A DNA stretch of 64,000 bases from contig JAUWDY010000005.1 of the NCBI GenBank assembly GCA_030608565.1, forward strand, positions 5,359-69,358, read 5' to 3'. Below are positions 35,040-59,372 of the stretch, one piece after another. The notes beneath the pieces are model-generated. The model saw only the letters and a list, made by a program, of their open reading frames with translations. It was not told the DNA's origin and ran no database searches. Made by a program: the position numbers and the translations under genes. Each line of letters starts with the position of its first letter. Within the stretch, counting starts at the first letter, position 1. Source of the DNA: Candidatus Bathyarchaeota archaeon (lineage in GTDB: Archaea > Thermoproteota > Bathyarchaeia > Bathyarchaeales > Bathyarchaeaceae).

Positions 35040-36749
35040 ATGCGCTGTCAACGATTTCTACTGACTCTGCTGCTTCTAACGTTGTTCTCAGCAACGCTCA
35101 TAGCATGGCTTATTGTTCCAGCTGCAGCAGACACCCTCCAAGTGCCGCATGAATACCCAACTATACAAGCCGCTGTGAACGCAGCTGGAACTGGAGACAT
35201 AATAGAAGTTGATGCTGGAACGTACCTTGAAAACGTCGTAGTAAACAAAACAGTAACCATAAAGGGCGACAGCGCCACGAGTACTGTCGTTGATGGCGGC
35301 GGCAACGATGTAGTCTTCAACATACAGGAAGATAATGTGGAATTATGTGATTTGACAATTCGTAACGGGGGAAGCTACAGCGGCGTCACCATTTACTATC
35401 CTTTCAACGGTTTGACAATCTGCAATACCCGAATTATAGATAATGTTGTTGGCGTCGTCGTATCCGAGGCAGACGGCAATGTAATCGAAGACAATGTTTT
35501 CATCAACAATCAGATGTATGGCATCGATGTGACATATTCAATCAACACCATTATTAGAGATAACCAGATATCAGAAAGTGCTTATGGCATTGAAATTTCT
35601 GACACTTCAGGCAGTCAAGTTGTCAACAACACCATTTCTGATACTTCATATGGCGTATATGTGCCCTTCTCAAACAACAATAACATAAACACAAACACAC
35701 TCGCCAGCAATTCTTGGAACATCTACCTCACATACTCAAACAGTAACATCATAGAATACAACAATGTGTCAGGAGGCACAGTAGGCATCCAAGTCATGTA
35801 CTCAGAAGGCAACTCAGTCTTGAACAACACTGTAAGCAGCAGCTCTTACGGCATCTATCTAGGATATTGTGGTGCCAACACTGTCATCGGCAACACAGCA
35901 TCACTGAACGATTGGAGCATCGAACTCTACAGTTCCGCCGGAAGCACAATCATTGAAAACCTCATAAACGATAACACTTGGGGCGCCTGGGTAGCAGAAA
36001 ACTCTGATGGAAACAGTATCTACCACAACAACTTCATCAACAACGCGAAAGGAGCCTTCCAAGACCTGACCAGCTCAAACACTTGGAACACTCCCACAGC
36101 ACCTTACCAAGGAAACTACTGGGACGACTACAAAGGCACAGACACTGACGGCGACGGCACAGGCGACACCTACCTGCCCTGGGAAGGCGTAGACTGGCAC
36201 CCTTTAATGAAGCCTCTTGGAGTCTACCGTGACGTTGCTGTAATAAGTGTCACACCCTCCGACACTCAAGCATACGTTGGAGAAATGGTTAATATCACAG
36301 TCGTTGCAGAAAACCAGGGAACATCGGCAGAAACCTTCAATGTCACCGCAAAGTACGAAAACGTTACCCTCGGAATCTTTGGAACCATTGGAACACAGGA
36401 AGTTACAAACTTGGATCCTGAGCAAGACATTACTTTAACATTCATCTGGAATACCACAGACGTACAACCATGCGTTCACTATACAATCAAAGCTGAAGCA
36501 AGCCTTGTTCCTGATGAATTCGACACGTCGGATAACACTTACACCGACGGCACAGTGAAAATCAAAATGGAGGGAGACGTAAACGGCGACGGTTCCGTAG
36601 ATGTTATGGATCTATCTATAGTTTCTTTGGCTTACGGAAGCTTCGAGGGAGAACCAGACTATAATCCAGATGCGGACTTGAACAAAGACGGAGTCGTGGA
36701 CATGCGCGACCTAGCAACAGTAGCTATGAACCTAGGAAACACGTGCTAG
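35040..36749 (+). CDS. Secreted NosD-like parallel beta-helix protein + CARDB-like domain + C-terminal dockerin
   Basis: It has a signal peptide. Then come VPHEYPTIQAAVNAAGTGDIIEVDAGTYLENV and >10 PbH1 repeats, followed by GNYWDDYKGTDTDGDGTGDTYLPW. A CARDB-like module follows (RDVAVISVTPSDTQAYVGEMVNITVVAENQG). The dockerin is GDVNGDGSVDVMDL...DADLNKDGVVDMRDL (nt 36567-36746). Confidence 0.8.
   Translation: MRCQRFLLTLLLLTLFSATLIAWLIVPAAADTLQVPHEYPTIQAAVNAAGTGDIIEVDAGTYLENVVVNKTVTIKGDSATSTVVDGGGNDVVFNIQEDNVELCDLTIRNGGSYSGVTIYYPFNGLTICNTRIIDNVVGVVVSEADGNVIEDNVFINNQMYGIDVTYSINTIIRDNQISESAYGIEISDTSGSQVVNNTISDTSYGVYVPFSNNNNINTNTLASNSWNIYLTYSNSNIIEYNNVSGGTVGIQVMYSEGNSVLNNTVSSSSYGIYLGYCGANTVIGNTASLNDWSIELYSSAGSTIIENLINDNTWGAWVAENSDGNSIYHNNFINNAKGAFQDLTSSNTWNTPTAPYQGNYWDDYKGTDTDGDGTGDTYLPWEGVDWHPLMKPLGVYRDVAVISVTPSDTQAYVGEMVNITVVAENQGTSAETFNVTAKYENVTLGIFGTIGTQEVTNLDPEQDITLTFIWNTTDVQPCVHYTIKAEASLVPDEFDTSDNTYTDGTVKIKMEGDVNGDGSVDVMDLSIVSLAYGSFEGEPDYNPDADLNKDGVVDMRDLATVAMNLGNTC
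36649..36746 (+). repeat. ~98-nt near-identical dockerin 3' cassette, copy 1 (partner 40662..40759)
   Basis: The string gagaaccagactataatc[c/t]agatgcggacttgaacaa[a/g]gacggagtcgtggacatgcgcgacctagcaa... was read in both genes. Confidence 0.8.
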
Positions 36750-36764
36750 TTGCATTCGCGCCTT

Positions 36765-38086: not shown

Positions 38087-40765
38087 TTGAAGATGAAACG
38101 TGTTGCTCAAACCGTTTATTTTATGACTATGATTCTAATTTTGTCAGCGCCGGCGATTCTATTTTCTTGTGCTGACGAAACGCGCAGTGTTAATGTGGTT
38201 AGCCTCCAAAACGCCGAATCTTCAGGAGATTTTGTTGAGCCTGTTATTTATCACGTATACTCTATAGATCGAGATTTCAACAACATTCAGGATCGTCTCG
38301 AAAGCTTGATTTTGCAAACGTTGCAGGTCAACGAGAGCGCGGTTTTACCTGTTGTAGTTACTCTGTATGGTTCTGTTTCGTCTCAAGACTTGGAATATTT
38401 CAGAGAGCTAGGTGGGAATATACAGCATGTCTACGATCATGTGACATATGGTTTTGCAGGAGAAATTCCTGCGTCTAAGATATCATTGTTTGCAAGTCTG
38501 GAAAGAGAGAAACTTTCTATGATTGAATATGACTTGCCTCTTCGCTATCATTTGGACGTCAGTACTCCTCTCATTCGGGCAAGGCCTACTGTGTGGAACA
38601 CGTATGGCTACATGGGATCTCCAAACCAATCTATCGCCATCCTTGACACAGGCATTGATGACTCCCATCTCGACCTTGGGCCATATCAAAACCTAAATTT
38701 TTCAAGCAAGATGGTGGGCTGGTATGATGCAACCTCTGATAATTCGTTGACGCCGGAAGACTATGGAGAACATGGAACCCACGTTGCAGGCATAGCAGCT
38801 GGAACGGGAACGACAAACAATCTGCAAGGATCGGGTAATATACAAACCACATTCACGTATGTTTTGCCCCCGGTTGGATATGGCTACATGGACATTATTG
38901 ATGTAATGAACCCAGGAGTTATCGAATTAAATGTTAGGTGGGATGGAACCAACGACGTGTTGCTAAGGTTGTATGATCCTTCTGGAGAATGGGTTACACA
39001 AACTAGTGGAAAAAGCCAGCCGTTAATCTTAACTTACAACACGACTGACACGCCTTATCCGACAGGACGTTACGAAGTTCTTGTGGGCAACTTGGCGGGT
39101 CCATCGGGCACTCCGTTTTCATGCATAGAAACCTATCCTTATGAAGGACGTAGCGACGGCTATAACCTCTTCAGCGGAGTTGCACCCAACTCCAAGCTTG
39201 TGGGTGTTAAAGTGTTTGATAACACAGGTTCTGGAACATTTGCAACTCTTTTGGATGCAATGGATTGGATAATTGAAAATCGCCAAACTTATCACATAGT
39301 TGTTGCCAGCATGAGCTTATCACTAGAAGATGGCGCAACTGATACCACGCTTGACCTGAAAGCAGACACTATGGTGCAGAATGGAATTGTAACTGTAGTT
39401 TCAGCGGGCAACGATTATCCAGATTATACTGTAGGCTCGCCTGGAACTGCTGCTTATGTCATAACAGTTGCGGCTACTAATGATCTAAACGGCGTTACCT
39501 CGTATAGTAGTAATGGAGACCAAGCAAAAAATGAGTATGGATTAGTTAAGCCTGATGTTGCTGCTCCGGGTGGAACTTTTGATCCAGCCTATGGAAATCG
39601 TATTATTTCAGCTGATAGTAATGATGTAGACGGCGCGTACAGTGGTTTTTCGGATCAGAATGTAGATGATTATCAACAGATGGGGGGCACATCTATGTCT
39701 GCACCTCATGTTGCTGGGTTGGCTGCCTTGGTTGTTCAAGCCTTGGGCAGTTGGAACTGGACTTTTGAAGAGGCGTTGAAGGTGAAAATGTTGATTGGTA
39801 TGACTGCTTCTGAAACGCAGAAAGGAGAGGGTTCAAACGTGCCTCTGTTAAATCGTGGAGAAAAGGATAGCAAGGAAGGGTATGGGCGGGTTAACGCGGA
39901 TGCTGTTATAGAAGCTGCAACTATGAACTATAGCGTAGGGGAGGAAGTTAATGGCACGTTTGGTTCTGGATCTTCAGATAAGAAAGTTTGGGCTCGACAA
40001 GTTCATTTAACAACAGGCTCCAAATATGTGTTCAATTTGACTGTTCCAGTTGACGCAGATTATGACCTTTTTGTATATAATGGTACGGCAGACAGTTACG
40101 GGCAACCAGTTATCTTGACCAAAAGTGTTAATGCTTCTTTGGGTGCAGACGAGATTATGCAGTTTGCTCCTAACGCTTCAGGCACCTATTATATAGTGGC
40201 TAAGTGGGTGAGCGGTGAAGGTACATTCACCTTGTCCAGTGCCACATCTATTTTGCGTGATGTAGCTGTGACCGATGTAACGGTGTCGGATACGGCGGTG
40301 TATGTCGGGGAAACCGTGAACATTACCGTGGCTGTACAGAATTATGGAGGTGTCCCTGAAAGTTTTGATGTAACGGTTTTTTACAATAGTACTGTTATTG
40401 AAGTGAGAAATGTAAGTGATCTTGCGGTTGGAGCATCTGAAGTTTTAACCTTTAGCTGGGGCACTTCTGGAGTGCAGCCTTGTACCAAAAACTACACAAT
40501 AAAAGCTGAAGCTAGTGTCGTGTCTGACGAGTCTAATATATCTAATAATGTCCTGATCGACGGAGATGTTAAAGTTAAGATGCAAGGAGATGTGAACGGT
40601 GATGGCATTGTGAACGTTTTAGATTTGTCTGTTGTTTCTATGTCCTATGGGAGTTTTGAAGGAGAACCAGACTATAATCTAGATGCGGACTTGAACAAGG
40701 ACGGAGTCGTGGACATGCGCGACCTAGCAAAAGTGGCCATGAACCTTGGAAACACTTGCTCATGA
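38087..40765 (+). CDS. Secreted subtilisin-family (S8) serine protease with an inserted beta-sandwich, PPC-like domain, CARDB-like domain and C-terminal dockerin
   Basis: The catalytic triad contexts are AILDTGIDDSH (Asp), GEHGTHVAGIAAG (His) and GGTSMSAPHVAGLAA (Ser). A ~100-aa insert follows the His. A DYDLFVYNG-type pre-peptidase C-terminal-like domain is present, then a CARDB-like RDVAVTDVTVSD...NITVAVQNYG. The dockerin is GDVNGDGIVNVLDL...DADLNKDGVVDMRDL (nt 40580-40762). Confidence 0.9.
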   Translation: MKMKRVAQTVYFMTMILILSAPAILFSCADETRSVNVVSLQNAESSGDFVEPVIYHVYSIDRDFNNIQDRLESLILQTLQVNESAVLPVVVTLYGSVSSQDLEYFRELGGNIQHVYDHVTYGFAGEIPASKISLFASLEREKLSMIEYDLPLRYHLDVSTPLIRARPTVWNTYGYMGSPNQSIAILDTGIDDSHLDLGPYQNLNFSSKMVGWYDATSDNSLTPEDYGEHGTHVAGIAAGTGTTNNLQGSGNIQTTFTYVLPPVGYGYMDIIDVMNPGVIELNVRWDGTNDVLLRLYDPSGEWVTQTSGKSQPLILTYNTTDTPYPTGRYEVLVGNLAGPSGTPFSCIETYPYEGRSDGYNLFSGVAPNSKLVGVKVFDNTGSGTFATLLDAMDWIIENRQTYHIVVASMSLSLEDGATDTTLDLKADTMVQNGIVTVVSAGNDYPDYTVGSPGTAAYVITVAATNDLNGVTSYSSNGDQAKNEYGLVKPDVAAPGGTFDPAYGNRIISADSNDVDGAYSGFSDQNVDDYQQMGGTSMSAPHVAGLAALVVQALGSWNWTFEEALKVKMLIGMTASETQKGEGSNVPLLNRGEKDSKEGYGRVNADAVIEAATMNYSVGEEVNGTFGSGSSDKKVWARQVHLTTGSKYVFNLTVPVDADYDLFVYNGTADSYGQPVILTKSVNASLGADEIMQFAPNASGTYYIVAKWVSGEGTFTLSSATSILRDVAVTDVTVSDTAVYVGETVNITVAVQNYGGVPESFDVTVFYNSTVIEVRNVSDLAVGASEVLTFSWGTSGVQPCTKNYTIKAEASVVSDESNISNNVLIDGDVKVKMQGDVNGDGIVNVLDLSVVSMSYGSFEGEPDYNLDADLNKDGVVDMRDLAKVAMNLGNTCS
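40662..40759 (+). repeat. ~98-nt near-identical dockerin 3' cassette, copy 2 (partner 36649..36746)
   Basis: See copy 1. Confidence 0.8.
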
Positions 40766-44948: not shown

Positions 44949-46091
44949 CTATCTCGCAAACGCTAGCTTCGCAGGGTACTTCGGTTGTTTTCGTTTGTGT
45001 TTGCTCCACCAGATGTAGATGATGACTCCTATTAGAGCGATTTCTAAGGCAGCTCCAAAGGGAAACTCTGGTACAGCGCTGATGGTTACTGAGCCGTCAG
45101 TGGTGGTGTGCTCCATTCTATTGGCTAATCGTTTGTTGGTGAAGTCGTATCCGACAAGTTTTGTATCTGTGAGGTTTAGGCCTGTTGTTCCTGAAGTTCC
45201 ATCTACAGTGAAAGTGATTGTGGCCAAGGTTCCGCTGCCTGATGCTCCTGCGGTGTCTCCGGTGAGAGTGCATGTGACCCAATATCGTCCGTGGGTTGCA
45301 TTGTAGGTGTCGGTGTTGTTTAATACGCTGAAGAAAGTTGTGCCCGCGGATGACAGGAAGGTTCCTTGAGTAACGCTGCCATTGGTTAAGATGTTGTTTT
45401 TGTAGTAGAGTTTGAACTCCCAGCCGTAGAGGTCATCTACGCTGGCGATGTCTATGTCAACAGTAAATGGTGAAGAAGGATCAGATAAACTGGATGGACT
45501 CACACTCATTGTGCCCTTCTGATAAGCGGTTACGGTCACCCAAGCCTCGTACTCGTAGAAGTAGGCGGCGCCTCCACCGCCAGTACCACCTTCAACACGT
45601 AACCTAATGTCTGTTATGTCTGTCCAGCTCCACACTCCATCATTAGGTTCACTTTGGCTAAGCCACACCCTCTCTGGGCTCGTGTAGTCATAGTCTACAC
45701 CAGACCCGATCCAATCCTGCAATACAACCGGGCCGGCAGTTCCTACGTAATAAACAATCCTGTAATTCTCCCCTGTGCCACCCTTTCCAGATTTATAATT
45801 CATCTTGAAGTCGACGAAGGCTATACCCTTTGTTGTAGGTGCTCCGCTTATGCTAAATGTTTTTACTTCTTCATATTCGCTTTTGTCATATGCTATCCGC
45901 GCATAAGTAGCGGTACTGCCATCGTAGGCATCTGCTGGATCATCAACGCCAGCATCTGCAACATGAGCCGTTGGACTAGAATCATATGTAGCCATTGCTG
46001 GGCTTGCGTAAGCTACGTTAAGGAATAGAAGCGTTAATGTTCCATAAAGAACAAGTAAAAAGATTAAACATTTTTTGATCTTATTCAACAC
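44949..46091 (-). CDS. Surface-anchoring cohesin protein: unknown N-terminal domain + cohesin + PEF-CTERM-like sorting tail
   Basis: It has a signal peptide. Residues 193-338 are a cohesin (VDDLYGWEFKLYYKNNIL ... ASGSGTLATITFTV ... TDGSVTIS). The tail is AVPEFPFGAALEIALIGVIIYIWWSKHKRKQPK. Confidence 0.75.
   Translation of the reverse strand: MLNKIKKCLIFLLVLYGTLTLLFLNVAYASPAMATYDSSPTAHVADAGVDDPADAYDGSTATYARIAYDKSEYEEVKTFSISGAPTTKGIAFVDFKMNYKSGKGGTGENYRIVYYVGTAGPVVLQDWIGSGVDYDYTSPERVWLSQSEPNDGVWSWTDITDIRLRVEGGTGGGGAAYFYEYEAWVTVTAYQKGTMSVSPSSLSDPSSPFTVDIDIASVDDLYGWEFKLYYKNNILTNGSVTQGTFLSSAGTTFFSVLNNTDTYNATHGRYWVTCTLTGDTAGASGSGTLATITFTVDGTSGTTGLNLTDTKLVGYDFTNKRLANRMEHTTTDGSVTISAVPEFPFGAALEIALIGVIIYIWWSKHKRKQPKYPAKLAFAR
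44952..45077 (-). other. PEF/PEFG-CTERM-like tripartite sorting signal (motif, TM helix, basic cluster), putative archaeosortase substrate site
   Basis: The signal reads VPEFPFG + AALEIALIGVIIYIWW + SKHKRK. Related tails occur at 49633..49743 (LPEAPFG...KMKKSK) and 52710..52808 (SEPFP...YMRRKRT). Confidence 0.55.
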
Positions 46092-46225: not shown

Positions 46226-47164
46226 CTAGTAGTTTGCGTAGACTCCGTATTGAAGGGACACCAACGTTAAGTCGATGACGTTAACATAGCCATCGTTGTT
46301 TATGTCTTCTGGGCCTTCATATCCGGGTCCAGACTCGACTTTTAGCGCTACAGAAGACAGGTCGAATATGTCAACAGCGCCATCTGCATTCAAGTCTTCA
46401 TCCTTCGGTAGAAGGAAGTAGCCGCTTTCCTTGATTAGCTCTCCTTCCTCATCTCCCTTAGTTTCTCCTAAGCCATTTATGAGGTATGTGAATGACCAGT
46501 CAATGTTCAAAACTGTCTCCCCTTCAGCTTGTACATAAAATGTGAATGTGGATAGCCAACCGTTGCCTTGAGCACCGGGTGCCGGTCCATGACTTGTTGT
46601 ACCAGCCATGATGTCACCCCAACCATGATCTACGAGCGCCGTTGGCGTGAGGTCAGGCTGAGGATAAGCCCCCCCATTCGCAGCCACAGTATAGGTGTTC
46701 ACAAGGTCGTTCAACATAGTTAGCTGGGTACCTAAAACAGAAGCAACCTGGTTCTCCTCGCTATTACTGTCATCTTCAATCAAAACTGCGTAACCTGCCG
46801 CGAACTTTGATCCATCAGCAACGCTCACTATTTTTTGGCCTGAAGCAGCATTCGCAGTTAGAAGACCCCACGGCCCCACTCTAGGAGCATCCAGAAAGTC
46901 ACCCCATATAACCGTGTCATCTATGTCCAACACCAGAGGATCCCACTTCATGTAAACCTGCCAAGCAAAAACATCAGTGTGTAAATCGTAATCCGCATCA
47001 TAAACATAGATATCGACGTAGAAGATCCCACCCGTTCTTCCAGTATAGTACGTAGGTTCAACTTTGAAGGATGGTGTGGTGTCTGTTGAACCGAAATTTA
47101 TGAAGACTAGACTTAAGAGTAGTGAAAGAAGTAATGATATCCATAGGTTTTTAGTTACTTTCAT
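46226..47164 (-). CDS. Secreted insert-bearing cohesin-like module + divergent dockerin (adaptor-type)
   Basis: It has a signal peptide. Its module is near-identical to scaffoldin module 1 (DVFAWQVYMKWDPLVLDID...GNGWLSTFTFYVQAEGETVLNIDWSF). The dockerin is DLNADGAVDIFDL...EDINNDGYVNVIDL (nt 46229-46405). Confidence 0.75.
   Translation of the reverse strand: MKVTKNLWISLLLSLLLSLVFINFGSTDTTPSFKVEPTYYTGRTGGIFYVDIYVYDADYDLHTDVFAWQVYMKWDPLVLDIDDTVIWGDFLDAPRVGPWGLLTANAASGQKIVSVADGSKFAAGYAVLIEDDSNSEENQVASVLGTQLTMLNDLVNTYTVAANGGAYPQPDLTPTALVDHGWGDIMAGTTSHGPAPGAQGNGWLSTFTFYVQAEGETVLNIDWSFTYLINGLGETKGDEEGELIKESGYFLLPKDEDLNADGAVDIFDLSSVALKVESGPGYEGPEDINNDGYVNVIDLTLVSLQYGVYANY
46412..46968 (-). repeat. 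~555-bp dispersed direct repeat, copy 2 (see 44084..44640)
   Basis: The alignment is the same as described for copy 1. Confidence 0.8.
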
Positions 47165-48203: not shown

Positions 48204-49457
48204 TCATGTAGCCCCAAGGTTCATAGCGACCAACACGAGGTCACGCATATCAACAACGCCATCAGCATTAATGTCGCACTCAGGATCATATTCTGGCTCA
48301 CCTTCAAAAGAGCCAAAAGCAATCGACACCAACGTGATGTCAACCACATTGACAACTCCATCACTGTTGACGTCTCCTACGAGGGAGGTCTTGTAGTAAA
48401 TGTCATAGTTTCCCCAATCTGGTTGGTCTGCCCTATCTGAGGTCCACACTACCCAGATTTTGACAAGATGTGTCTGAACCACTGAGGGCCATATGTCATC
48501 GTACTTGTCTGTGGTGAATTGAAAAATATCTAACCATGTAACACCATCGTCAGATGAGTGCATGTAGTAGATGTCATCGGTTGCTGTTTCCGCGGGTTCA
48601 CGTTGTGACCAGAAAATCCGTATTTTTCTATCTATAGTTTGGAGAACATATGGGTTTGAATCGATCCTTGGGCCACTTGTTATTTGGGTGTCCTCAGACC
48701 ATGAAGCACCAAAGTTAGAAGAGGTTTTATGGTATAAGTCGTAGTTGCCGGTTCTATCAGAGGCCCAGACAACCCAAATCGTATTATCGGACGTTTCTGT
48801 GAGAGAAGGCATTTTGTCGAGACTTGAATCCGTAGTGAGTCGTATGTCGTCAGACCAAGAGGTTTCGTTGTTGTAAGAAAGTTTTCGATACAAATCGTAG
48901 CCTCCACTTCTATCAGAGGCCCAGACAACCCAAATTGACTCATCAGACATCTGGTGGATAGCGGGTTTTAGGTCGTGACCAGAATAGAAAGTTAGTTGAG
49001 TATCGTTAGACCATGAAGCACCAAAGTTTGGGGAAGTCTTGTAGAAAATCTCGTAGTTGCCGGTTCTATCAGAGGCCCAAACAACCCAAATTGTGCCATC
49101 TGAAGCTTGACAAGCGGAAACCCCTGAATTAGCGGTGCCATTTATAGTTAACTGGGTTTCTTGTGACCAGCTAACTCCCCAATTAGTTGAAGTTACATAG
49201 AAGAGATTATAACTGTCAATTATTTTTCTGGTCCAGAAAATCCACAATGTTCCATTATGTGTCTCAATGATGGCTGGAATTCCATCGAAATCCACGTAAG
49301 TGGTTAATCTAACTTCATCATCTGACCATGTTACGGCGCCAACGAGAATTGTTGATACGATTAGTAACAATGTAAACAAAACTGATGCGATAAGTCTCAT
49401 TTTGAAATCTATTTCTACTTGAAAAAGCTGCCCCAGATTCTTCCTCCCTCCTCTCAA
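48204..49457 (-). CDS. Secreted BNR/Asp-box beta-propeller (sialidase-like fold) + C-terminal dockerin
   Basis: Asp-box-like repeats seen: STNWGVSWS, SPNFGASWS, SYNNETSWS, SSNFGASWS, SSDDGVTWL. IWVVWASDR strands recur. The dockerin is GDVNSDGVVNVVDI...CDINADGVVDMRDL (nt 48207-48380). Confidence 0.8.
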   Translation of the reverse strand: MRGGRKNLGQLFQVEIDFKMRLIASVLFTLLLIVSTILVGAVTWSDDEVRLTTYVDFDGIPAIIETHNGTLWIFWTRKIIDSYNLFYVTSTNWGVSWSQETQLTINGTANSGVSACQASDGTIWVVWASDRTGNYEIFYKTSPNFGASWSNDTQLTFYSGHDLKPAIHQMSDESIWVVWASDRSGGYDLYRKLSYNNETSWSDDIRLTTDSSLDKMPSLTETSDNTIWVVWASDRTGNYDLYHKTSSNFGASWSEDTQITSGPRIDSNPYVLQTIDRKIRIFWSQREPAETATDDIYYMHSSDDGVTWLDIFQFTTDKYDDIWPSVVQTHLVKIWVVWTSDRADQPDWGNYDIYYKTSLVGDVNSDGVVNVVDITLVSIAFGSFEGEPEYDPECDINADGVVDMRDLVLVAMNLGAT

Positions 49458-49629: not shown

Positions 49630-52578
49630 CTAGACTGGTTTGGATTTCTTCATTTTCACCAAGTAAACTGCCATTACTGCGATTACTATTGCCATTCCGA
49701 TAGTCGTGTAGTGAAAGATGCCGAAAGGCGCCTCCGGCAATTCTTGTATGAGAACTCCAATGGTTCGCGAATTGTCCACACTATAGGTTTCTCCAGGTAA
49801 AGGTTCGGCTAATGCTTTGACTGTGTAAATGCCGGCCGCTATATTTCGTGTATCCCACGTAAGGCTTATTGTCTCATTTACGCCTGTAGCTAAAGGCGCG
49901 GTGAGGGCTCGTGTAAGTCGAGTGTTGTTATAGTAAATTGTCACATTAAACGATTCTATTGCAGTGCCCTTGTTCAAGGCGATCACATTTATTGTTAGCA
50001 ATTCTCCTTTGGTTGCTTTGATTTTTGATACTTCAATGTCGAGAATAGCTATGTCTTGGATCGCCACGTTCACGCTCAGTTCAGGACTTTCAGCTGAAAG
50101 AGTTATTGAATCGCCTTTCCAAGAGGCTTTGATTTGGTAGATGCCAGATTCTGTTGGCATCCAATCAAAGGAGTATTGACCGTTTTGACTTGTTGAGACA
50201 TTTGCAAGAGACATCCAAGCGGTCTCCTCAACACGTGTATATTCAATGGCCACAATCACGCTAGCACGAGCAGGTGAAATGGACCCGCTGATAGTTGTGT
50301 TGAAGCCAAGGGGAACGGTTGTAGGCGAAGTGGATATGGCAATTGTGCTAGACGATTTTGGCACTATTACAGTCTCTGTTTTCGTATGGTCTAAGCCGTC
50401 GTCGTCAACTACCTTCAATTTCACAGCGTAGGTGCCAGGCATACTGTAAGCATGGGTTGCAGTCACGCCCGTGGCGTTTGCCTCATCACCAAAATCCCAT
50501 ATGTAATTCATGATCTCTCCTTCAGGGTCTCCTGGTGCATAGCTGGCTGACGCGTCAAAAGTGACTACTTCGCCCATGTTTGGCTCACTGGGCGAGAAAG
50601 TGAAAAAAGGTACAGGGAGCAACCGAATCAGAACAGTCAAGTTTTGCACGTTGTTCGTCGTATTAGCTTCGTCAACAACAGGGGGTACATATGCAGTTAC
50701 ATTGTATACACCTTCAACAGTGGAGTTCATTGCCCTAAACCAACTGAAGCTCAATGTTGTGGTGGCTCCGGCTGACAGTGTTACCGCAGTCTGATTTGCT
50801 ATAGGTTCGGTTGAATTGGCATAAACAAACACGTCGAAAGTGTCGTCTATATTGCCTTTGTTTTCAATCTCAACTTCTATGGTTGAAATTCTTCCTACAA
50901 CGATGTCGGTTGGACTGACTTCTATATTGGTAATTGCTATATCGTGTACAGGAACTTCGGTGGCGACTATTGGATCGCCAAAAAGTGTGTTGTCGACTGT
51001 GTTTTTCTCTTCGCTGGGACGAAAAACATGAGGTTTGATAAAATCGACTAAGTAGGCGTTTGCCCATATAGCGTAAGATCCTGGTGTAATGTCTCTTGGT
51101 TGAAGAGGGTTGATTCTCACTGGAAGCCAATCAACATAAATTGGCGTTGCGTTGACTCCAACCTGGATGTACCTTATACGAACCCTTGTTTTATTCATCA
51201 GGCTGGGCTCCCATAAGAGGCTGCCAGTTACGTCAACCCAGAAAAATGCATCGGTTACAGATGTGATGTTATAGACGATATCTTCGCTCCAAGTCTTTCC
51301 GTTGTAAACGCTCATGTTTAACTGATCATCTCCGCCTACATCAGTTTTCACTTCTATTCCAACTTCCACTTTGGATACGCAAGTCCACCCGATGGTGTCA
51401 AATTCGTAGCCTCTAAATTCTTGATATGTGTTATTGGTGCTGGTGTAGGTATAGAGATCATCTGAAGTGGAAGCGTTGAGCGGATAAGTCCACGCTCCAA
51501 CACCTTCTATAGAAGGACTCAACATTGTTTGATTGATATACGTATTCCAAAGGAACGTAAGGGTTTCATTGTCTCCGGGACTTAAACCGTCCACAAATTC
51601 AGTGTTTATCGGTATACTGTTGTAGAAGGCGGTCACGTTGAATGTGTCGTGGTGACTACCATTGTTCAGAACGGTCACATCGATTCTTGCTATTTCACCC
51701 GTGTGAACTTCGTCTGGGGTTTCTATCTCCAAGATGGCTATGTCATGGAATTTAACGTCCACCTCAAGCGAGACGGTGTTGTTTTCGCCATCGTCGTCAG
51801 TGATTGAAAGCGTCACATTGTATGAGGTAAGAAGAGTAGTAGATACGTTGTAAGCATGAGTTGTGATCACGTCCGTTCCATTTGTTCCATCATCAAAATC
51901 CCATACGTAACTGACTATGCTACCTCCATCAGGGTCGTAGCTGGCAGAGGCGTCAAAAGATATAGTTTCACCAACTATTGGACGCCCATAGGTATCAGGG
52001 GTAAAGGAGAAAGCAGCCACGGGTGCAGTTGTGTGGAAATCTCCGTCAGATGTGCTATGTGAAATTTCAACAACAGAAGAATCCAACAATATTGTGCCAT
52101 AGAGGTGTAGAGTGGATTCTCCTGCGGCTTTTACAGTGAAGGTTACGGTGAAAAGGTTTCCGCTGCCGCCTACTCCAGGATACTTGCCCAAAGTGACGCA
52201 GGCAACATAAACATAATCGTCAGCGATTGTGTATGAAAAGTATGTTCCCATCGGAGACGTAGTTTGATCTTTTATGAAAGGCCCTTCCTCAACATCAGTT
52301 GCTTCCAGAACGTTCTTATCGAATCCTACTCTAGCCTCATACGAGAAGAGATCTGTGACATCGGCGACGCCGATCTCAATGATAAAAGATTCAGTAGGGT
52401 TCGCCACATTGTTCGCAGGATCTACCGCAATTGTTGTGTCAGGAGAAGCTGATGCATGTAATGGAAAGGGTAAAATCACGCCTAGTGCAGCTACAAGTAC
52501 TATTGACAGTAAAAGAAAAGTTATGCTGAACCTTTTGGGATGATGTAACTTACGTAATCTCATAAGCCCTCTCTCCAA
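49630..52578 (-). CDS. 982-aa surface protein: cohesin + PKD + CARDB-like domains + unknown domain + PKD + Ig-like domains + PEF-CTERM-like tail
   Basis: The probable start is the ATG at 52563, after GGAGAGAGGG. The cohesin spans aa 48-183 (nt 52030-52437). PKD motifs are present (FDASASYDPDGGSIVSYVWDFDDGT; FDASASYAPGDPEGEIMNYIWDFGDE). Several CARDB-like modules occur (HDIAILEIE..., HDIAITNIE..., QDIAILDIE...). The tail is LPEAPFGIFHYTTIGMAIVIAVMAVYLVKMKKSKPV. I counted >20 N-x-S/T sequons by eye. Confidence 0.8.
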   Translation of the reverse strand: MERGLMRLRKLHHPKRFSITFLLLSIVLVAALGVILPFPLHASASPDTTIAVDPANNVANPTESFIIEIGVADVTDLFSYEARVGFDKNVLEATDVEEGPFIKDQTTSPMGTYFSYTIADDYVYVACVTLGKYPGVGGSGNLFTVTFTVKAAGESTLHLYGTILLDSSVVEISHSTSDGDFHTTAPVAAFSFTPDTYGRPIVGETISFDASASYDPDGGSIVSYVWDFDDGTNGTDVITTHAYNVSTTLLTSYNVTLSITDDDGENNTVSLEVDVKFHDIAILEIETPDEVHTGEIARIDVTVLNNGSHHDTFNVTAFYNSIPINTEFVDGLSPGDNETLTFLWNTYINQTMLSPSIEGVGAWTYPLNASTSDDLYTYTSTNNTYQEFRGYEFDTIGWTCVSKVEVGIEVKTDVGGDDQLNMSVYNGKTWSEDIVYNITSVTDAFFWVDVTGSLLWEPSLMNKTRVRIRYIQVGVNATPIYVDWLPVRINPLQPRDITPGSYAIWANAYLVDFIKPHVFRPSEEKNTVDNTLFGDPIVATEVPVHDIAITNIEVSPTDIVVGRISTIEVEIENKGNIDDTFDVFVYANSTEPIANQTAVTLSAGATTTLSFSWFRAMNSTVEGVYNVTAYVPPVVDEANTTNNVQNLTVLIRLLPVPFFTFSPSEPNMGEVVTFDASASYAPGDPEGEIMNYIWDFGDEANATGVTATHAYSMPGTYAVKLKVVDDDGLDHTKTETVIVPKSSSTIAISTSPTTVPLGFNTTISGSISPARASVIVAIEYTRVEETAWMSLANVSTSQNGQYSFDWMPTESGIYQIKASWKGDSITLSAESPELSVNVAIQDIAILDIEVSKIKATKGELLTINVIALNKGTAIESFNVTIYYNNTRLTRALTAPLATGVNETISLTWDTRNIAAGIYTVKALAEPLPGETYSVDNSRTIGVLIQELPEAPFGIFHYTTIGMAIVIAVMAVYLVKMKKSKPV

Positions 52579-54128: not shown

Positions 54129-55751
54129 TCAAGTTTCTCCAAGATAATAGGCTACTATTCTGAGGTCTCGCATATCTACGATTCCATCTTTGTTTATGTC
54201 TGCACTCAAGTTGTAGCCAGGTTCACCCTCAAAGGTGCCGTATGCCAGTGAGACTAGTGTTAAATCTACAACGTTAATCTGACCATCCTCATTTACGTCG
54301 CCTGCCAGAGAGGTTCTGCAGAAAGCTTCCCAGTCCTCACCGAGGGGGTTTGACGTCCACACAACCCAGATTTTCGTATCTATGGTTTGCATGACGGCAG
54401 GCCACGTTTCATCGTCGTTGCTTGCAGCAAAATCAATCTCTCCAGACCATGAAGCGCCATCGTCAGAAGAGGACTTGTAGCAGATATCAGTGTTCCCCAA
54501 TGGTGCCCCAGAAGTATAGAATATCATTATGTTCTCGTCTATGGTCTGGAGGATTGCTGGGTGTACGTTGGTGTTTGTGTTGTTAGTTAGTGTTGTGTCA
54601 GCAGACCATGTGAACCCATTATAAATCTTGTAGAAAATATCATAGGTTCCTGTCCTCATTGAAGTCCAGGCTACCCATATATCTCCGTCTTTCATTTGAC
54701 CTACGCTTGGACCCTTGTCATGGGCAGGATCTGTCGTCAATTGGTTCGTTGGGGCATCTGCCCATGATTCGCCCTCTGCTATTATCTTGTAGCAGATATT
54801 ATGACTGCCTGACACATAGCTTTGCCACACGATCATAATTGTGCCATTAGCCAGCTGAATGATCGCTGGGCGCAAGTCATCGACATTATTATCAGTTAGC
54901 GGAAAATCTTTAGACCATGTTACTCCATTGTCATGCGAGGCTTTATAGTAGATATCATAATCCAAGGAAGGTGAAGAAGGCGAAGAAGCGGTCACGTGCG
55001 AGGTTTTGCTGGTCTGACTGGTTCCTTCAGTGACTACAATCTCCAAGTAGACGTCCACGATATGTATTGTATGGTCGCCTTTTCCCATTACAGTTAGAGT
55101 GTAATTTCCAGGTGTGGCTGTGGAATTCACTGTCACCATCAAGGTTGAGTTGGCTGTTCCATTGATTGGTGGCGTGACCTGAGTTGGAATGAGGGTTGTG
55201 CTTACGTTCGCTGGTTCAGGCGGCACAATCGAGAGGGTCACAGGATCGCTAAAATTATGTACTGAAGTCACAGTTATTGTTGAGTTGTCAGACCCCCCTT
55301 GTGGGATAGTCAAATTCTGAGGCAACGCGTCCATAATGAAGTTTGGGGTCGGAGGTGGAGGTGGTGGTTGCCTGCTTGAAGTCCATACAACCCATATTGT
55401 GCCGTTTTGAGCTTGCATAATTGATGGGTTTTGGTCGTGACCATCACAAAAATTATCTGTTAAGTTCATCGCTTCAGACCATGTACTACCTTGATCACTC
55501 GTGATATTGTAGTACAACGTAAGGTTACTATCGATCTCCTTTGACCAAACAAGCCACACTCTTAAGTCTTCTGTTTGTGCAAGTGTGGGAAAACTGTCCG
55601 CAATCAAGTTTGATGTGAGTTGTTTGGTGTTTGCAGACCATGATATGGCCTGCACTTGCATGAAAATTGAGGATGCAACGACTAGAATAAGGAAAGCGCA
55701 TGTGACGTTGATTGAGCGTTCACGACGCATTTTGATTATGTCTCCTGTCAT
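54129..55751 (-). CDS. Secreted BNR/Asp-box beta-propeller with an inserted Ig-like domain + C-terminal dockerin
   Basis: Asp-boxes seen: TSDQGSTWS, SHDNGVTWS, SSDDGASWS. A PPPPPPTP linker leads into a ~110-aa Ig-like insert. The dockerin is GDVNEDGQINVVDL...ADINKDGIVDMRDL (nt 54132-54305). Confidence 0.8.
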   Translation of the reverse strand: MTGDIIKMRRERSINVTCAFLILVVASSIFMQVQAISWSANTKQLTSNLIADSFPTLAQTEDLRVWLVWSKEIDSNLTLYYNITSDQGSTWSEAMNLTDNFCDGHDQNPSIMQAQNGTIWVVWTSSRQPPPPPPTPNFIMDALPQNLTIPQGGSDNSTITVTSVHNFSDPVTLSIVPPEPANVSTTLIPTQVTPPINGTANSTLMVTVNSTATPGNYTLTVMGKGDHTIHIVDVYLEIVVTEGTSQTSKTSHVTASSPSSPSLDYDIYYKASHDNGVTWSKDFPLTDNNVDDLRPAIIQLANGTIMIVWQSYVSGSHNICYKIIAEGESWADAPTNQLTTDPAHDKGPSVGQMKDGDIWVAWTSMRTGTYDIFYKIYNGFTWSADTTLTNNTNTNVHPAILQTIDENIMIFYTSGAPLGNTDICYKSSSDDGASWSGEIDFAASNDDETWPAVMQTIDTKIWVVWTSNPLGEDWEAFCRTSLAGDVNEDGQINVVDLTLVSLAYGTFEGEPGYNLSADINKDGIVDMRDLRIVAYYLGET

Positions 55752-55829: not shown

Positions 55830-57224
55830 TTAAGGTACAATCCAGAAGTGCATTGTCTTCTGGGTTGATCCCCAAGAGTTCCATTTGAAGCCTTCGCTAG
55901 TGTATTCGATGGTTGCTGTGAGTTCGTATGTGCCGATGTGGTCTTCGCCTGAAAGCCATGTGACAGGGTCCAACTCAAGCTCCATGCCTGGGTTAACCAC
56001 GAATTCAGGTGGAGTAACAGGCGTTATAGCTGCAAACTCAACCTTCAATCGCACGCTGTCTATCTGCATAACATCAGGTGCGTCACCGTGGTAGTTGTAG
56101 ACGAGCATCTCAATATCGTTGAGGTCTGCTTCATTAGCTAGGTTTGGTTCTTGTTGTAGGACGCTTTCGCCGTCGATCCACCTAGTTCCGTACCAACCCC
56201 AGTCGGTAGTTCCCCAGCTGGATCCCCACCATGCAAACGCGGGCAGACCGTAAAGGTCAATGTCCACGTTCTCGGTGAAGCCATTTGGGAATCGCGAGTA
56301 GGTTTCTACCCATATGTTTGCGATCTCTTTGCCTCCAAGAGTAATATCTTCGAAGCCGAATAGAGATGCCCACTGGGCGTTAGCGTCGCCTTCAATGTAG
56401 TTGCCGTCGGGTTCTCCGAACAGGTTGGTTGGATCACCGTTGAATTCATAGTACCATTCGTTGAACTCGTTAACGTATAGGTATTCGAATGGTAGTGGTT
56501 CTCCAAGGCCACCGCCGGAGTAGGTTTGTCCAGCGTATATTCGGATGGTCCTGCTGTCTTCCAGTCGGGTTATGTCATAGCGTACCCTAACAGTTAGGGG
56601 AATGTCACCTTCGTTTATTACCTTGGCTTGGATTGGGAACACTGTTCCCGCTTTAACCTTGCGACCTTCAGGCATGTTTGCCCTGATCAGCCGTGCGGTT
56701 GGGCCTTGGTAGAAGGCGTCGGAAGTCTTGTGTGGCAGATAGTTGCCCTCTGGGTCCAACATAATGGTGTCCATCAGTGTTACTGGGCTTTCTCCAGATT
56801 CCACGACGAACAACTTGAATGTTGCCAGTATTCCGCTGCCAGATGCACCTACTCTTGGTGGGGTGCTCATCCTCATTATGACAACGGTGAATGTTCCTTC
56901 GAAAGAGTCAGTTGTGTATGTGAAGTAGGTCAGATGTGATCCACCATCATTCATGAAGCTTCCTTCTAGAATGTTGGATGCTGTTAGCACGGACACATAT
57001 GGCTGAACCTTCACAGTGAACTGAACTGCCCAAAGGTTTTCAGCATTGTCTATATTGACGGACATAGCGAATTCGTCGCCAGCGTGACCTTCCAGTTTAT
57101 CTGGCGTAATAGATATGGTGGTTGCGGGCGCTGCAGTCGTTGGGTTGATGCCAACCATCATGACGGTGAGCATCATTGCAATCAAGGATAGCAATAATAT
57201 GTTTTTTCCTCTCACTCTAATCAC
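55830..57224 (-). CDS. Secreted cohesin + uncharacterised ~300-aa C-terminal region
   Basis: It has a signal peptide. The cohesin reads AENLWAVQFTVKVQPYVSVL ... GASGSGILATFKLFVVESGES. The C-terminal region is Trp-rich and ends KTMHFWIVP (compare KTFSFAVVP in 47241..48137). The gene starts 9 nt after the stop of the binding-protein gene. Confidence 0.7.
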   Translation of the reverse strand: MIRVRGKNILLLSLIAMMLTVMMVGINPTTAAPATTISITPDKLEGHAGDEFAMSVNIDNAENLWAVQFTVKVQPYVSVLTASNILEGSFMNDGGSHLTYFTYTTDSFEGTFTVVIMRMSTPPRVGASGSGILATFKLFVVESGESPVTLMDTIMLDPEGNYLPHKTSDAFYQGPTARLIRANMPEGRKVKAGTVFPIQAKVINEGDIPLTVRVRYDITRLEDSRTIRIYAGQTYSGGGLGEPLPFEYLYVNEFNEWYYEFNGDPTNLFGEPDGNYIEGDANAQWASLFGFEDITLGGKEIANIWVETYSRFPNGFTENVDIDLYGLPAFAWWGSSWGTTDWGWYGTRWIDGESVLQQEPNLANEADLNDIEMLVYNYHGDAPDVMQIDSVRLKVEFAAITPVTPPEFVVNPGMELELDPVTWLSGEDHIGTYELTATIEYTSEGFKWNSWGSTQKTMHFWIVP

Positions 57225-57233
57225 CTCAATATT

Positions 57234-59372
57234 TTATGGGTATTCCTTTTGCCAGAGCAAGTGGTAGGCTGCGATGTATATGTCTCTCATGTCTACGATC
57301 TCGTCTGAGTTAAAGTCTGCAGCAGCGTTGTAGCAGGGTTTTATTATAGTACATCCGTAAGCGAAGCTCACGAAAGTCAAGTCGATGACGTTTACGACAC
57401 CGCTTTTGTCGTAGTCACCAACTTCCCAGAACATATCTGCCTTTAGAGTCGCTATAGCAGCAGTTGACATGAAGTAGTTCTCGTTCTTCCACATGTCGTC
57501 ATACATGTTCACTGCATCATAGAATTGGAATATCCATGGACCTGTTCCGAACAGGTTTGTTGGAGTTGGGTTTGGACCATCTGTGTAGCCAGATGCAACA
57601 TTGTAAGCCTCAGTTGGATCATAGTCTAGAACAGCCGCTCTCTCAAGTGGATCACTTGAGCTGCCAAACCGATTCCAAATGTGTTCTGGAATCAATGGGG
57701 CGAGACCAGAATAGTCATAGAATAGACCGATACCCTCTTCACTAGCTTCTATAGTGACATGTGTGTTATTTGTTACGACAACATCATCAAGTGTCATCCA
57801 TGTTGCGGCATACCTAGGCACTTGGTAGTCTCTGAGGAATTCTAAACAGAATTCGACATCGTAAGCCGTGAACGGCTTGCCGTCTTGCCAATCAACATCG
57901 TTCCTTAGAGTGAAATCTATATCCATTCCACCCACGGTCGACGTGATTGTCCAGTCTGACGCGATCCATGAAATGTCATTATGGTTGTACGGGTTCACAG
58001 CCGTCAAACCATCCTGGGTCTGTCCTATAATGTTCCATTCGTATACTGTGGTAGCATAGCATGGGTTGAGTGAGCCTGGATCGTCACCGTTAATGTAGAC
58101 TACGACATTCTTTGTGCCTTCTGTCCTTTCATATCCTGCTTCCCAATTGAGATTGAAGAACGTCCAACTGTTGTCTGAGCCGTAACCAGGCGATTTAACG
58201 ATGCCTTCAAGGTGTTCAGCGAACACGTTGAAATATGACCTGGAATACAGCAACATGTATGCCAACGCGAAGTTATCTGCGTTAGGATACGTGACTTCGT
58301 CATCAGTATACAGCATCTCTTGGACTTCTTTGGCGGCAGTTTCTATGTCGTCCGTGTCAAGGCTGAACTTAACTGTCTCAACGAGTGCATCGATGGCTGC
58401 ATCATGGAGTCCAGTAGCACCATCTGCTCCGGATAAGATCATGCAGTCTTGGCTTGAGTGAAGGAACGAATACAGTTGGTCAGGTATCCTTCCCATACCG
58501 TAGAAGACCATGTAAGCGTCGAAGTGGGCATAGTCGTACACATCTTCTAGGTATTCGCTGAAGTCTCGGCCAAGGCTTTCGAAGCCGCTGTTACCGTTGT
58601 CTGCAGTTGCTGCCAGTCCTATATTGCGTAGGTCTGCAACAAACTCTTGACCATGCTGGTAGGATGTTGGTGCAACTCCTATGAGTGGCGTCCATATCTC
58701 CAAGTGTGGTATAGGGGAGTTGTCGGGGGACCTCCAGAAGTCGTCATCCGTGACGGTTCCGCTGCTGTCGTCGTCAACAAAGGTGTAGCCAGCGTCCATG
58801 AGTATACCGCATGACGTGCCGTCACCGGCTGTAGACGTGAATGGGTTGCCTGGGTTATACGGATGCTCTGGAACACCAGGGTTGTAGTATTTGCTTTGAG
58901 CAGGTGGAACAAGTGAACGAACAGGTGTTACAATGTAACCATAGATTGGAGGGATAATCCCCAATTGGTCATAGCAATGGATAAGCGCATGTCTAAATTC
59001 CATATCCTGAAGAGGCCAATAAGTTATGTCAGTCCTCCAAGTATAGTTTGCCGCTATGGCCTCAGCGCTTTCACCTCGAATAGTGGCTGTGTCCCTGATG
59101 TTGTAGGCGATGAAGCCCATGTGAAAACCTAGGTCTTCTGTTACAGTCATACCATCGGCATCTTGCTTTTCAATATCTCCTGTTCTTATCTGGTCAGGTG
59201 AAAAGTCAGCTATACCAGTCTGCATTGCAATCAAAGCTGCGTCAGGTGATCTAATCACCATGTGACGTAGGATATCCATCTCCGGACCATTTTGCGAAAA
59301 GGTCGTTGAAACCATCAGAATCGGCGCAAGCATTGAAACTAGCATTATAGCTAATATAACTTTAGATTTCAA
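57234..59372 (-). CDS. ABC transporter substrate-binding protein, family 5 (OppA/DppA-like), apparently circularly permuted, with a C-terminal dockerin
   Basis: It has a signal peptide without a lipobox Cys. SBP_bac_5-type motifs seen: INGDDPGSLNP...DGLTAVNP...WIASDWTI...DFTLRNDVDWQDGKPFTAYDVEF, FGTGPWIF, and PLQDMEFRHALIHCYDQ. The C-terminus is a dockerin-like module (next feature). Confidence 0.8.
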   Translation of the reverse strand: MKSKVILAIMLVSMLAPILMVSTTFSQNGPEMDILRHMVIRSPDAALIAMQTGIADFSPDQIRTGDIEKQDADGMTVTEDLGFHMGFIAYNIRDTATIRGESAEAIAANYTWRTDITYWPLQDMEFRHALIHCYDQLGIIPPIYGYIVTPVRSLVPPAQSKYYNPGVPEHPYNPGNPFTSTAGDGTSCGILMDAGYTFVDDDSSGTVTDDDFWRSPDNSPIPHLEIWTPLIGVAPTSYQHGQEFVADLRNIGLAATADNGNSGFESLGRDFSEYLEDVYDYAHFDAYMVFYGMGRIPDQLYSFLHSSQDCMILSGADGATGLHDAAIDALVETVKFSLDTDDIETAAKEVQEMLYTDDEVTYPNADNFALAYMLLYSRSYFNVFAEHLEGIVKSPGYGSDNSWTFFNLNWEAGYERTEGTKNVVVYINGDDPGSLNPCYATTVYEWNIIGQTQDGLTAVNPYNHNDISWIASDWTITSTVGGMDIDFTLRNDVDWQDGKPFTAYDVEFCLEFLRDYQVPRYAATWMTLDDVVVTNNTHVTIEASEEGIGLFYDYSGLAPLIPEHIWNRFGSSSDPLERAAVLDYDPTEAYNVASGYTDGPNPTPTNLFGTGPWIFQFYDAVNMYDDMWKNENYFMSTAAIATLKADMFWEVGDYDKSGVVNVIDLTFVSFAYGCTIIKPCYNAAADFNSDEIVDMRDIYIAAYHLLWQKEYP
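57237..57422 (-). other. Divergent two-segment dockerin module at the C-terminus of the ABC binding protein
   Basis: The module reads GDYDKSGVVNVIDLTFVSFAYG ... ADFNSDEIVDMRDIYIAAYHL. Both 12-residue loops keep D/N/S at positions 1, 3, 5, 9 and 12, and each is followed by a helix. The same layout is seen in the six other dockerins in the window. Confidence 0.65.

Follow-up and report, generated by a model that had tools for sequence, protein, structure and literature searches.

We analyzed a 64,000-nucleotide stretch of DNA (hereafter the window) from a Candidatus Bathyarchaeota archaeon (contig JAUWDY010000005.1, positions 5,359 to 69,358) that carries a group of genes for proteins with cohesin and dockerin modules. 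Nine cohesins in eight proteins were found with Pfam and a local hidden Markov model (HMM), and seven two-segment dockerins with Pfam Dockerin_1, a second local HMM and direct reading of the translations. Both counts had been given by an earlier, model-made reading of the letters (the sequence-only reading) and were borne out. Its estimate of about 140 amino acids per cohesin fits seven of the modules; the other two are about 225 amino acids long. Every open reading frame (ORF) that it named exists, and one of them, 1224-2045 on the minus strand, lies outside the interval of 35040-59372 to which it had assigned the system. Ten of the genes run in the same direction on the minus strand, again as described, and make up an array of 18,554 bp (40819-59372). 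The array genes and their neighbors are listed in Table 1.

Table 1. Genes of the cohesin-dockerin array in order of transcription, followed by other genes of the window (Ig-like, immunoglobulin-like; pLDDT, predicted local distance difference test; TM, transmembrane)
Position	Strand	Product and modules	Family matches and model scores
57234..59372	-	Secreted family-5 (Opp/Dpp/Nik-type) solute-binding protein with C-terminal dockerin ~57237-57431; first gene of the array	SBP_bac_5 92 bits; dockerin E = 8e-18 (local HMM)
55830..57224	-	Secreted; most divergent cohesin of the set ~56697-57134; 285-aa C-terminal region; no TM tail, no dockerin	
54129..55751	-	BNR/Asp-box propeller with C-terminal class-A dockerin ~54132-54311	BNR_2 46 bits; Dockerin_1 40.6 bits
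52707..54011	-	Short membrane anchor: cohesin ~53466-53921, PKD, CARDB, 'SEPFP', TM helix, RRKRT tail	Pfam Cohesin, PKD_4, CARDB
49630..52578	-	Long membrane anchor, 982 aa: N-terminal cohesin ~52021-52452, PKD/CARDB/Big Ig-like domains, 'YVDWLPVR' domain, TM helix, basic tail	
48204..49457	-	Second BNR/Asp-box propeller with class-A dockerin ~48207-48386	BNR_2 53 bits; Dockerin_1 38.8 bits
47241..48137	-	Secreted cohesin ~47598-48023, then Ig-like beta-sandwich; no anchor, no dockerin	Cohesin 47 bits; AlphaFold pLDDT 91
46226..47164	-	Adaptor: insertion-type cohesin ~46400-47080 and class-B dockerin ~46229-46399	AlphaFold pLDDT 89.5
44949..46091	-	Membrane-proximal anchor: N-terminal domain, cohesin ~45072-45521, 'SAVPEFPFG', TM helix, basic tail ~44952-45071	Cohesin 35.5 bits
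40819..44874	-	Scaffoldin-like, 1351 aa: cohesin A ~44065-44754, six InlB B-repeats, cohesin B ~42241-42690, four B-repeats, Big/OmpL47-like, C-terminal FIMAH	Flg_new_2 x10 (313 bits), Cohesin, FIMAH
38087..40765	+	Secreted S8 subtilase: N-terminal pro-region, CARDB, class-A dockerin ~40577-40762	Peptidase_S8 164 bits; Dockerin_1 35.3 bits
35040..36749	+	NosD-like right-handed beta-helix with class-A dockerin ~36564-36746	NosD 153 bits; Beta_helix 82 bits; Dockerin_1 37.7 bits
36765..37898	-	NosD-like beta-helix; C-terminal TM helix and basic tail in place of a dockerin	NosD 99 bits
1224..2045	-	Distant second adaptor: cohesin ~1410-1880 and class-A dockerin ~1227-1409	Dockerin_1 33.2 bits
2051..4396	-	delta-60-like repeat protein, 781 aa; single dockerin-like segment, TM helix, KKRKQPR tail	NCBIfam delta_60_rpt
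59549..63946	+	oppB/C/D/F-like ABC permease and ATPase genes, divergent from the binding protein	BPD_transp_1, OppC_N, ABC_tran, oligo_HPY
6223..7086	-	Archaeosortase/exosortase-family membrane protein, ~38 kb from the array	Exosortase_EpsH 49.6 bits

Identity of the modules

Pfam Cohesin (PF00963) matched above its gathering threshold in 44949-46091, 47241-48137, 49630-52578, 52707-54011 and one of the two modules of 40819-44874. The module of 55830-57224 was sub-threshold (21.2 bits against a cutoff of 24.1), and no Pfam Cohesin match was obtained in 1224-2045, in 46226-47164 or at the N-terminus of 40819-44874. The local cohesin HMM, trained on the five Pfam-positive modules only and searched against the six-frame translation of the whole window, retrieved all four of the remaining modules (E = 1e-26 for 1224-2045 and 4e-20 for 55830-57224) and found no further cohesin there. 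Its matches were split in the adaptor 46226-47164 and in cohesin A of the scaffoldin-like protein 40819-44874, the two long modules, each of which has an insertion of about 80 residues; it is because this insertion hides them that the insertion-type cohesins are not seen by Pfam. A seven-cohesin profile compared with the PDB matched type II cohesins best (3l8q, E = 4e-9) and also the Archaeoglobus fulgidus cohesin 2xdh.

Each of the seven dockerins can be read directly as two tandem 22-residue segments, in which a calcium-binding loop (D-x-N/D-x-D-G-x-x-x-x-x-D) is followed by a helix. Pfam Dockerin_1 (PF00404) was above threshold in five proteins, exactly at threshold in 46226-47164, where half a module was covered, and below it in the binding protein 57234-59372 (20.3 bits against a cutoff of 22.9). 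The local dockerin HMM found all seven at E = 5e-11 or better. The loop residues that bind calcium are intact, with substitutions (S for D, E for G) in the loops of the binding-protein dockerin. The motif GDVNxDGxVNVxDL...DADLNKDGVVDMRDL is common to six of the dockerins, of which the binding-protein copy is a divergent variant, and the nearest PDB match to a dockerin of the locus was 2y3n_B, the Cel48 dockerin of Bacteroides cellulosolvens (E = 1e-10). Class A comprises the dockerins of the BNR, NosD and protease proteins and of the adaptor 1224-2045. Class B is that of the adaptor 46226-47164, whose two segments resemble the segments of other dockerins in swapped order and do not have the DMRDL signature.

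AlphaFold models built with homologue alignments for two of the nine cohesins (pLDDT values in Table 1) had cohesins as their best fold matches in the PDB. The module of 47241-48137 superimposed on A. fulgidus 2xdh with a TM-score of 0.83 and a root-mean-square deviation of 2.5 A at 22% identity. For the Pfam-negative insertion cohesin of 46226-47164, the TM-score against 4uyp was 0.75-0.79, and the best matches were type II and type I cohesins. The insertion itself (DGSKF...IEDDSNSE...TYTVAANGGAYP; residues ~95-180 of 46226-47164 and ~105-190 of 40819-44874) was modelled with high confidence as extra beta structure. A fold search with the whole model of 46226-47164 also gave weak partial matches to phage tailspikes over 85-100 aligned columns. 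The sequence-only reading had named profile searches with the two families and structure prediction as checks; the former returned significant matches, and both modelled modules match solved cohesins. Judged by profiles, calcium-loop residues and predicted folds, the modules are genuine cohesins and dockerins.

The ten-gene array, its relatives and its neighbors

Each of the cohesin and dockerin proteins of the locus begins with an N-terminal hydrophobic segment of an export type, and the signal peptides of the sequence-only reading are present at that level. It had also sorted the proteins cleanly into four classes. Anchors, adaptors, a two-cohesin scaffoldin and dockerin-only cargo do exist, but 47241-48137 and 55830-57224 fit none of them. 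The proteins that combine cohesin and dockerin carry one cohesin each, and the two-cohesin protein has neither a dockerin nor a TM tail.

The array is headed by the gene of the binding protein, which is circularly permuted: positions 146-344 of SBP_bac_5 align with residues 30-289, and positions 5-148 with residues 469-640. PDB alignments agree with this domain order. At E <= 1e-30 the protein was matched by 99 cluster representatives, and because many of the best 150 homologues are colinear with it over their full length, the permuted order is a family trait and not an assembly error. We know of no description of such a permuted binding protein. Its relatives in the PDB include binders of peptides, nickel and mannosides. 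The gene 55830-57224 starts 9 nt after it, and the two are the only near-contiguous pair in the array; the orthologues of 55830-57224 in the related loci L005 and L007 lie 1-18 nt behind the binding-protein gene. The binding-protein dockerin and the position of the gene are kept in L005, L007, L018, L021, L022 and L050.

At their C-terminus, three cohesin proteins (52707-54011, 49630-52578 and 44949-46091) have a TM helix and a basic tail. The distance from cohesin to tail differs among these three anchors, from directly adjacent through two Ig-like domains to about eight domains. The tail of 44949-46091 reads VPEFPFG-TM-KHKRK, and the VPEFP[FML]G motif is kept in L004, L005 and L007; looser variants (PEAPFG, SEPFP) occur in the other two anchors, and the tail of 52707-54011 is kept in L005 and L007. 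By this motif, the tail of 44949-46091 is like a PEF-CTERM sorting signal. No SLH or LPXTG match was found in the proteins of the locus, nor was any S-layer domain family detected in the proteins of the cluster.

The long anchor also contains an unannotated domain of about 130 residues that ends in YVDWLPVRI (51079-51561, minus strand). It shares 37% identity (E = 3e-19) with an insert between the cohesin and the dockerin of P0263, a homologue of the adaptor, and by this alignment it behaves as a mobile module in the cohesin-dockerin system. We considered a domain recurring in 49630-52578, at the N-terminal end of 44949-46091 and at the C-terminal end of 55830-57224 and rejected it, as phmmer found no mutual similarity; only for the domain of 49630-52578 could a relative be demonstrated, namely the P0263 insert. 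Neither of the two terminal regions has a Pfam match.

The remaining array genes encode two propellers, a cohesin-only protein, the adaptor and the scaffoldin-like protein. The PDB sequence matches of the BNR protein 48204-49457 span its dockerin only. Homologues of 47241-48137 numbered 133. Its Ig-like domain (47241-47600, minus strand; residues ~180-298), which has no Pfam family, shows a near-invariant SAWPEHHHF and a conserved KTFSFAVVP end across 55 homologues. The three histidines of SAWPEHHHF suggest a metal or ligand site. In several metagenome loci (e.g. L060, L061, L065 and L074) this WPEHHH domain is found with no cohesin. The insertion and the dockerin of the adaptor are retained in about 20 homologues, and its cohesin is 78% identical to cohesin A of the scaffoldin-like protein. 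In the latter, tandem repeats of 231 bp at 41360-42258 (3.9 copies) and 42707-44062 (5.9 copies), with 73-77% matches, encode the InlB B-repeats that flank cohesin B. Their copy number varies among relatives, and the orthologues in L007 and L004 have two to three cohesins.

Most array genes are preceded by A/T-rich TATA-like boxes and ribosome-binding sites of the GGAG/GGTG type and followed by oligo-T tracts (e.g. in the intergenic stretches 55752-55829, 52579-52706, 47165-47240 and 46092-46225). These signals suggest several transcription units rather than one operon.

We scanned metagenome contigs for related loci and obtained 66, in which cohesin (C) and dockerin (D) ORFs were marked by the local HMMs. 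Syntenic contigs, identified through relatives of 47241-48137 at 51-61% identity, have a dockerin on the binding protein and a cohesin gene tightly behind it. L005 and L007 have all ten array genes colinear and in the same orientation, and L004 and L001 have part of the array. The same-strand order D C D C C D C CD C C was found in every sufficiently long contig at >=45% identity, and rearranged variants occurred at 30-38% identity. At least three cohesin ORFs and a dockerin were present in 15 of the 23 loci of >=7 kb; most of the others match the C-terminal Ig-like domain only. The dockerin classes are kept by gene position in the relatives, the position of the BNR gene 54129-55751 is kept as well, and in one lineage the DMRDL signature is altered jointly in both BNR proteins. 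Judged by this shared gene order, the ten-gene array is a conserved unit.

The named homologues place the contig in the class Bathyarchaeia, which agrees with the archaeal origin that had been thought probable. The archaeosortase-family protein 6223-7086 shares 94% identity with a protein from Candidatus Bathyarchaeum sp., and its more distant named matches are all from Candidatus Bathyarchaeota. The protein 47241-48137 is identical to one on an 81.7-kb NCBI contig, and its family includes a protein of the complete Candidatus Bathyarchaeota genome CP070683.1. The complete Bathyarchaeota genome has retained the distal half of the array, and the scaffoldin there has three cohesins. By these protein matches the host is a Bathyarchaeia archaeon close to the only cultivated genus.

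A scan of a genome collection with the three closest cohesins gave two loci. On L002 (WVXJ01000022.1, 1375 bp), labelled as an Armatimonadota metagenome-assembled genome, a dockerin-bearing S8-subtilase homologue is represented by its C-terminal part, and behind it lies a cohesin that shares 60% identity with that of the window; the contig is probably a mis-binned Bathyarchaeia fragment. In L003 (Aquincola tertiaricarbonis NZ_JZUE01000045.1, 7691-11174), a betaproteobacterial cohesin 35% identical to this family is encoded in a frame that overlaps the beginning of its neighbor, and the neighboring frame codes for a protein of 965 aa with a dockerin at its C-terminus. From the Aquincola pair it therefore follows that related cohesin-dockerin pairs exist outside archaea.

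Beyond the last gene of the array lies the subtilase gene, convergent with it. The motifs AILDTG, HGTHVAG and GTSMSAP are readable (around D187, H229, N442 and S536), and by these motifs the catalytic site is apparently intact. The flanks that were fetched for the syntenic relatives do not contain the gene, and the sole dockerin-bearing subtilase homologue found was that of the 1.4-kb contig L002. The dockerin-bearing NosD-like protein 35040-36749 matched NosD best in the PDB (7o0y, E = 1e-11), and NosD-type genes also lie behind the array in L007.

At the other end of the window, the gene 2051-4396 is directly upstream of the adaptor 1224-2045. It encodes repeats of the form YGG...DxAYSVVQTSDGGYALAGYT...DFWLVKTD, and its dockerin-like segment matched the local dockerin HMM at E = 2e-5 over half of the model. 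The region 5164-31649, mostly on the minus strand, is a glycosylation or exopolysaccharide (EPS)-like cluster of about 25 kb with GT2/GT4 glycosyltransferases, two DegT aminotransferases, epimerases, FemAB-like genes of the PEP-CTERM-system type and the archaeosortase-family gene. One of the FemAB-like genes (23342-24463) scored 192 bits on TIGR03019. The layout of this cluster resembles bacterial exosortase EPS loci, here in an archaeon. The cluster also contains an 1179-aa ORF (13764-17303, minus strand) with no Pfam or NCBIfam match.

Proposed surface tethering and rival explanations

In the reading that we consider likely, the locus would encode a conserved system by which Bathyarchaeia tether proteins to the cell surface through cohesin-dockerin pairs. 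Calcium-dependent binding between dockerins and cohesins would fix dockerin-tagged proteins to the membrane-anchored cohesins, and these would capture their cargo at different heights between the membrane and the S-layer. The cargo would comprise the Opp-type solute-binding protein, the two BNR propellers, the NosD-like beta-helix protein and the S8 protease. For the binding protein, the dockerin may substitute for the lipid or TM anchor on which archaeal binding proteins normally depend to stay near their permease, and its cognate partner would be the divergent cohesin encoded 9 nt downstream. Adjacency and joint divergence indicate that it probably pairs with the cohesin of 55830-57224. The unanchored cohesin proteins, the adaptor and the two-cohesin scaffoldin would add branches.

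The PEF-like tail of 44949-46091 together with the archaeosortase-family gene suggests processing of at least one anchor, for which 6223-7086 would be the candidate enzyme. The protein of this gene scored 44.6 bits on TIGR04178 (cutoff 23) and 25.6 on the ArtC model (cutoff 100).

Several observations weigh against tethering as we propose it. The gene 6223-7086 lies some 38 kb from the array, and none of the subfamily models reached its cutoff for the protein. In 52707-54011 the PEF-CTERM model TIGR03024 scored 13.4 bits, short of its cutoff of 23, and it did not match 49630-52578 or 44949-46091, the latter having the clearest motif. Export was judged from N-terminal hydrophobicity only. There was no permease in the 2.9 kb upstream of the binding-protein gene of L050. 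Finally, four of the cohesin proteins (the scaffoldin, two cohesin-only proteins and the adaptor) have no recognizable anchor of their own, and because of this the topology of the assembly is conjecture.

These genes are open to more than one explanation. The sequence-only reading had proposed that proteolysis or glycan trimming is coupled to peptide capture. Such a catabolic organizer, a 'proteolosome', would hold a protease and/or glycan-trimming enzymes beside an oligopeptide-binding protein, and peptides would be captured immediately on release. A secreted S8 subtilase that appears intact and bears a class-A dockerin like that of other cargo would suit such a function, as would an Opp/Dpp-family binding protein adjoining oppBCDF-like genes. 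However, the subtilase lies outside the conserved ten-gene core and is missing from the relatives' fetched flanks, and the conserved cargo consists of the binding protein and two BNR propellers with no assigned activity. The PDB matches indicate that family-5 binding proteins also carry nickel and oligosaccharides, and the BNR and NosD proteins matched no glycosidase or lyase family above threshold. The coupling was not sustained by these results, and we regard it as unlikely. A structural or adhesive role, in which the pairs build or decorate the envelope, a sheath or cell-cell contacts and the propellers, beta-helix, PKD, CARDB and InlB-type repeats are non-enzymatic, is a rival to be taken seriously, yet seems to us somewhat doubtful. 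Domains without a catalytic family (Ig-like, repeat, propeller and beta-helix) do make up most of the mass of the cluster, and the glycosylation/EPS-like cluster with its archaeosortase-family and PEP-CTERM-system-type FemAB genes shares the window. Cultured Bathyarchaeum tardum has an S-layer and an outer sheath around chains of cells (PMC10477458), and a role in adhesion has been proposed for modules of anaerobic methanotrophic archaea (ANME) (PMC5244752). Yet the conserved array is headed by a solute-binding protein, which points to uptake, a protease of the same dockerin class is encoded alongside, and the cluster proteins are free of detectable S-layer families.

An assembly analogous to the cellulosome, acting on lignocellulose or on polysaccharides of plants or algae, would require the beta-helix proteins (pectinesterase/lyase-like) and BNR proteins (sialidase/glycoside hydrolase-like) to be catalytic. 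A weak Pectinesterase match (18.8 bits, cutoff 27) was obtained for the NosD-like protein 36765-37898, the BNR_2 family consists of sialidase-type propellers, and Bathyarchaeia have been linked to lignin degradation by metagenomics (PMC11697101). Against this, no glycoside hydrolase, polysaccharide lyase, carbohydrate esterase or carbohydrate-binding module (CBM) family was above threshold in the proteins of the locus, the PDB matches of the BNR protein are to the dockerin alone and the best PDB match of the beta-helix protein is NosD, all of which makes such an analogue improbable. A reading in which the modules bind nothing, being evolutionary remnants or accidental resemblances, is strongly disfavored, and we give it next to no weight: several modules do fall below Pfam thresholds, but the local HMM recovers sub-threshold modules with E-values down to 1e-26, the predicted folds are confident, the calcium-loop residues are intact, and gene order and dockerin classes are kept down to about 45% identity.

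The preferred reading, a tethering system at the cell surface, can be extended further. The ten genes may be a dedicated apparatus that holds an uptake machine, with the permuted binding protein seated in its cognate cohesin and the propellers and hydrolases borne on anchors of three lengths. Docking would then replace lipid or TM anchoring and define the architecture of a pseudo-periplasm, and the insertion cohesin and the segment-swapped dockerin would form a previously undescribed specificity pair. This extended version is tentative, and in its entirety we would sooner doubt it than accept it.

Bathyarchaeia are globally abundant in anoxic sediments and among the most abundant archaea of sediments. 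The system is small, syntenic and found near the cultivated genus, which makes it tractable for studying what non-cellulosomal pairs do in archaea, a role that the ANME papers explicitly left open (PMC5244752, PMC9012536). The description of the first cultivated member regarded the class as deficient in extracellular proteases (PMC10477458). At least some close relatives of that member encode a secreted subtilase tagged for predicted surface docking. The locus also supplies new, divergent cohesin-dockerin pairs, which may be mutually orthogonal and of possible use in protein-assembly engineering.

Comparison with known systems

The locus has the same module families as the clostridial cellulosomes (C. 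thermocellum CipA/SdbA, Acetivibrio cellulolyticus ScaA/ScaB) and the same logic of cargo, scaffoldin, adaptor and anchor, and by profile its cohesins are nearest to the type II cohesins 3l8q and 2b59. It differs in that the host is an archaeon, the scaffoldin has two cohesins only, there is no SLH or sortase anchoring, and the cargo consists of a binding protein, propellers, a beta-helix protein and a protease. As the sequence-only reading had stated, no glycoside hydrolase or CBM was detected by Pfam, and because none was found the locus is not a cellulosome. The amylosome of Ruminococcus bromii (PMC4611034) and the predicted mucinolysomes (PMC12997984) likewise reuse the cohesin-dockerin scaffold beyond cellulose; those are built around glycoside hydrolases in Firmicutes, unlike the present system.

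Within archaea, experimental proof of cohesin-dockerin binding exists for Archaeoglobus fulgidus, according to PMC9012536, which cites Bayer 1999 and Haimovitz 2008. The cohesin of that species is also archaeal and non-cellulosomal, and 2xdh is the closest single-domain fold match to 47241-48137. The archaea known at the time of Peer 2009, as summarized in PMC9012536, had no multi-cohesin scaffoldins; compared with A. fulgidus and these early-known archaea, the window combines nine cohesins with a scaffoldin and adaptors in a single locus. The view taken in the sequence-only reading that archaea are known for isolated modules alone is outdated, as networks have been reported from ANME (PMC5244752, PMC9012536). 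An ANME-1 genome encodes about 80 cohesin and about 150 dockerin domains (PMC5244752), and ANME have proteins with a dockerin and up to five cohesins, while OppA/NikA and TroA binding proteins are among the frequent carriers of their dockerins (PMC9012536).

The ANME networks are therefore the nearest precedent described, and a dense non-cellulosomal archaeal cohesin-dockerin system with a docked binding protein is already known from them. Our comparison is with the published descriptions. The two are alike in an archaeal host, no link to cellulose, many cohesin and dockerin proteins, multi-cohesin proteins and dockerin carriers of the OppA/NikA type, and in both the function has been deduced from genomes only. 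They differ in phylum (Halobacterota there, Bathyarchaeota here) and in layout, as one compact syntenic ten-gene array is kept here across many relatives. TM or PEF-CTERM-like tails take the place of S-layer domains, the scaffoldin has InlB B-repeats and FIMAH and no dockerin, and the binding protein is permuted. Full-text searches that paired Bathyarchaeia with cohesin, dockerin or cellulosome returned no description of a cohesin-dockerin system in this class. Taken together, what appears to be new in the window is the host lineage, the compact syntenic array, the anchors of the TM/PEF type and the insertion-bearing cohesin.

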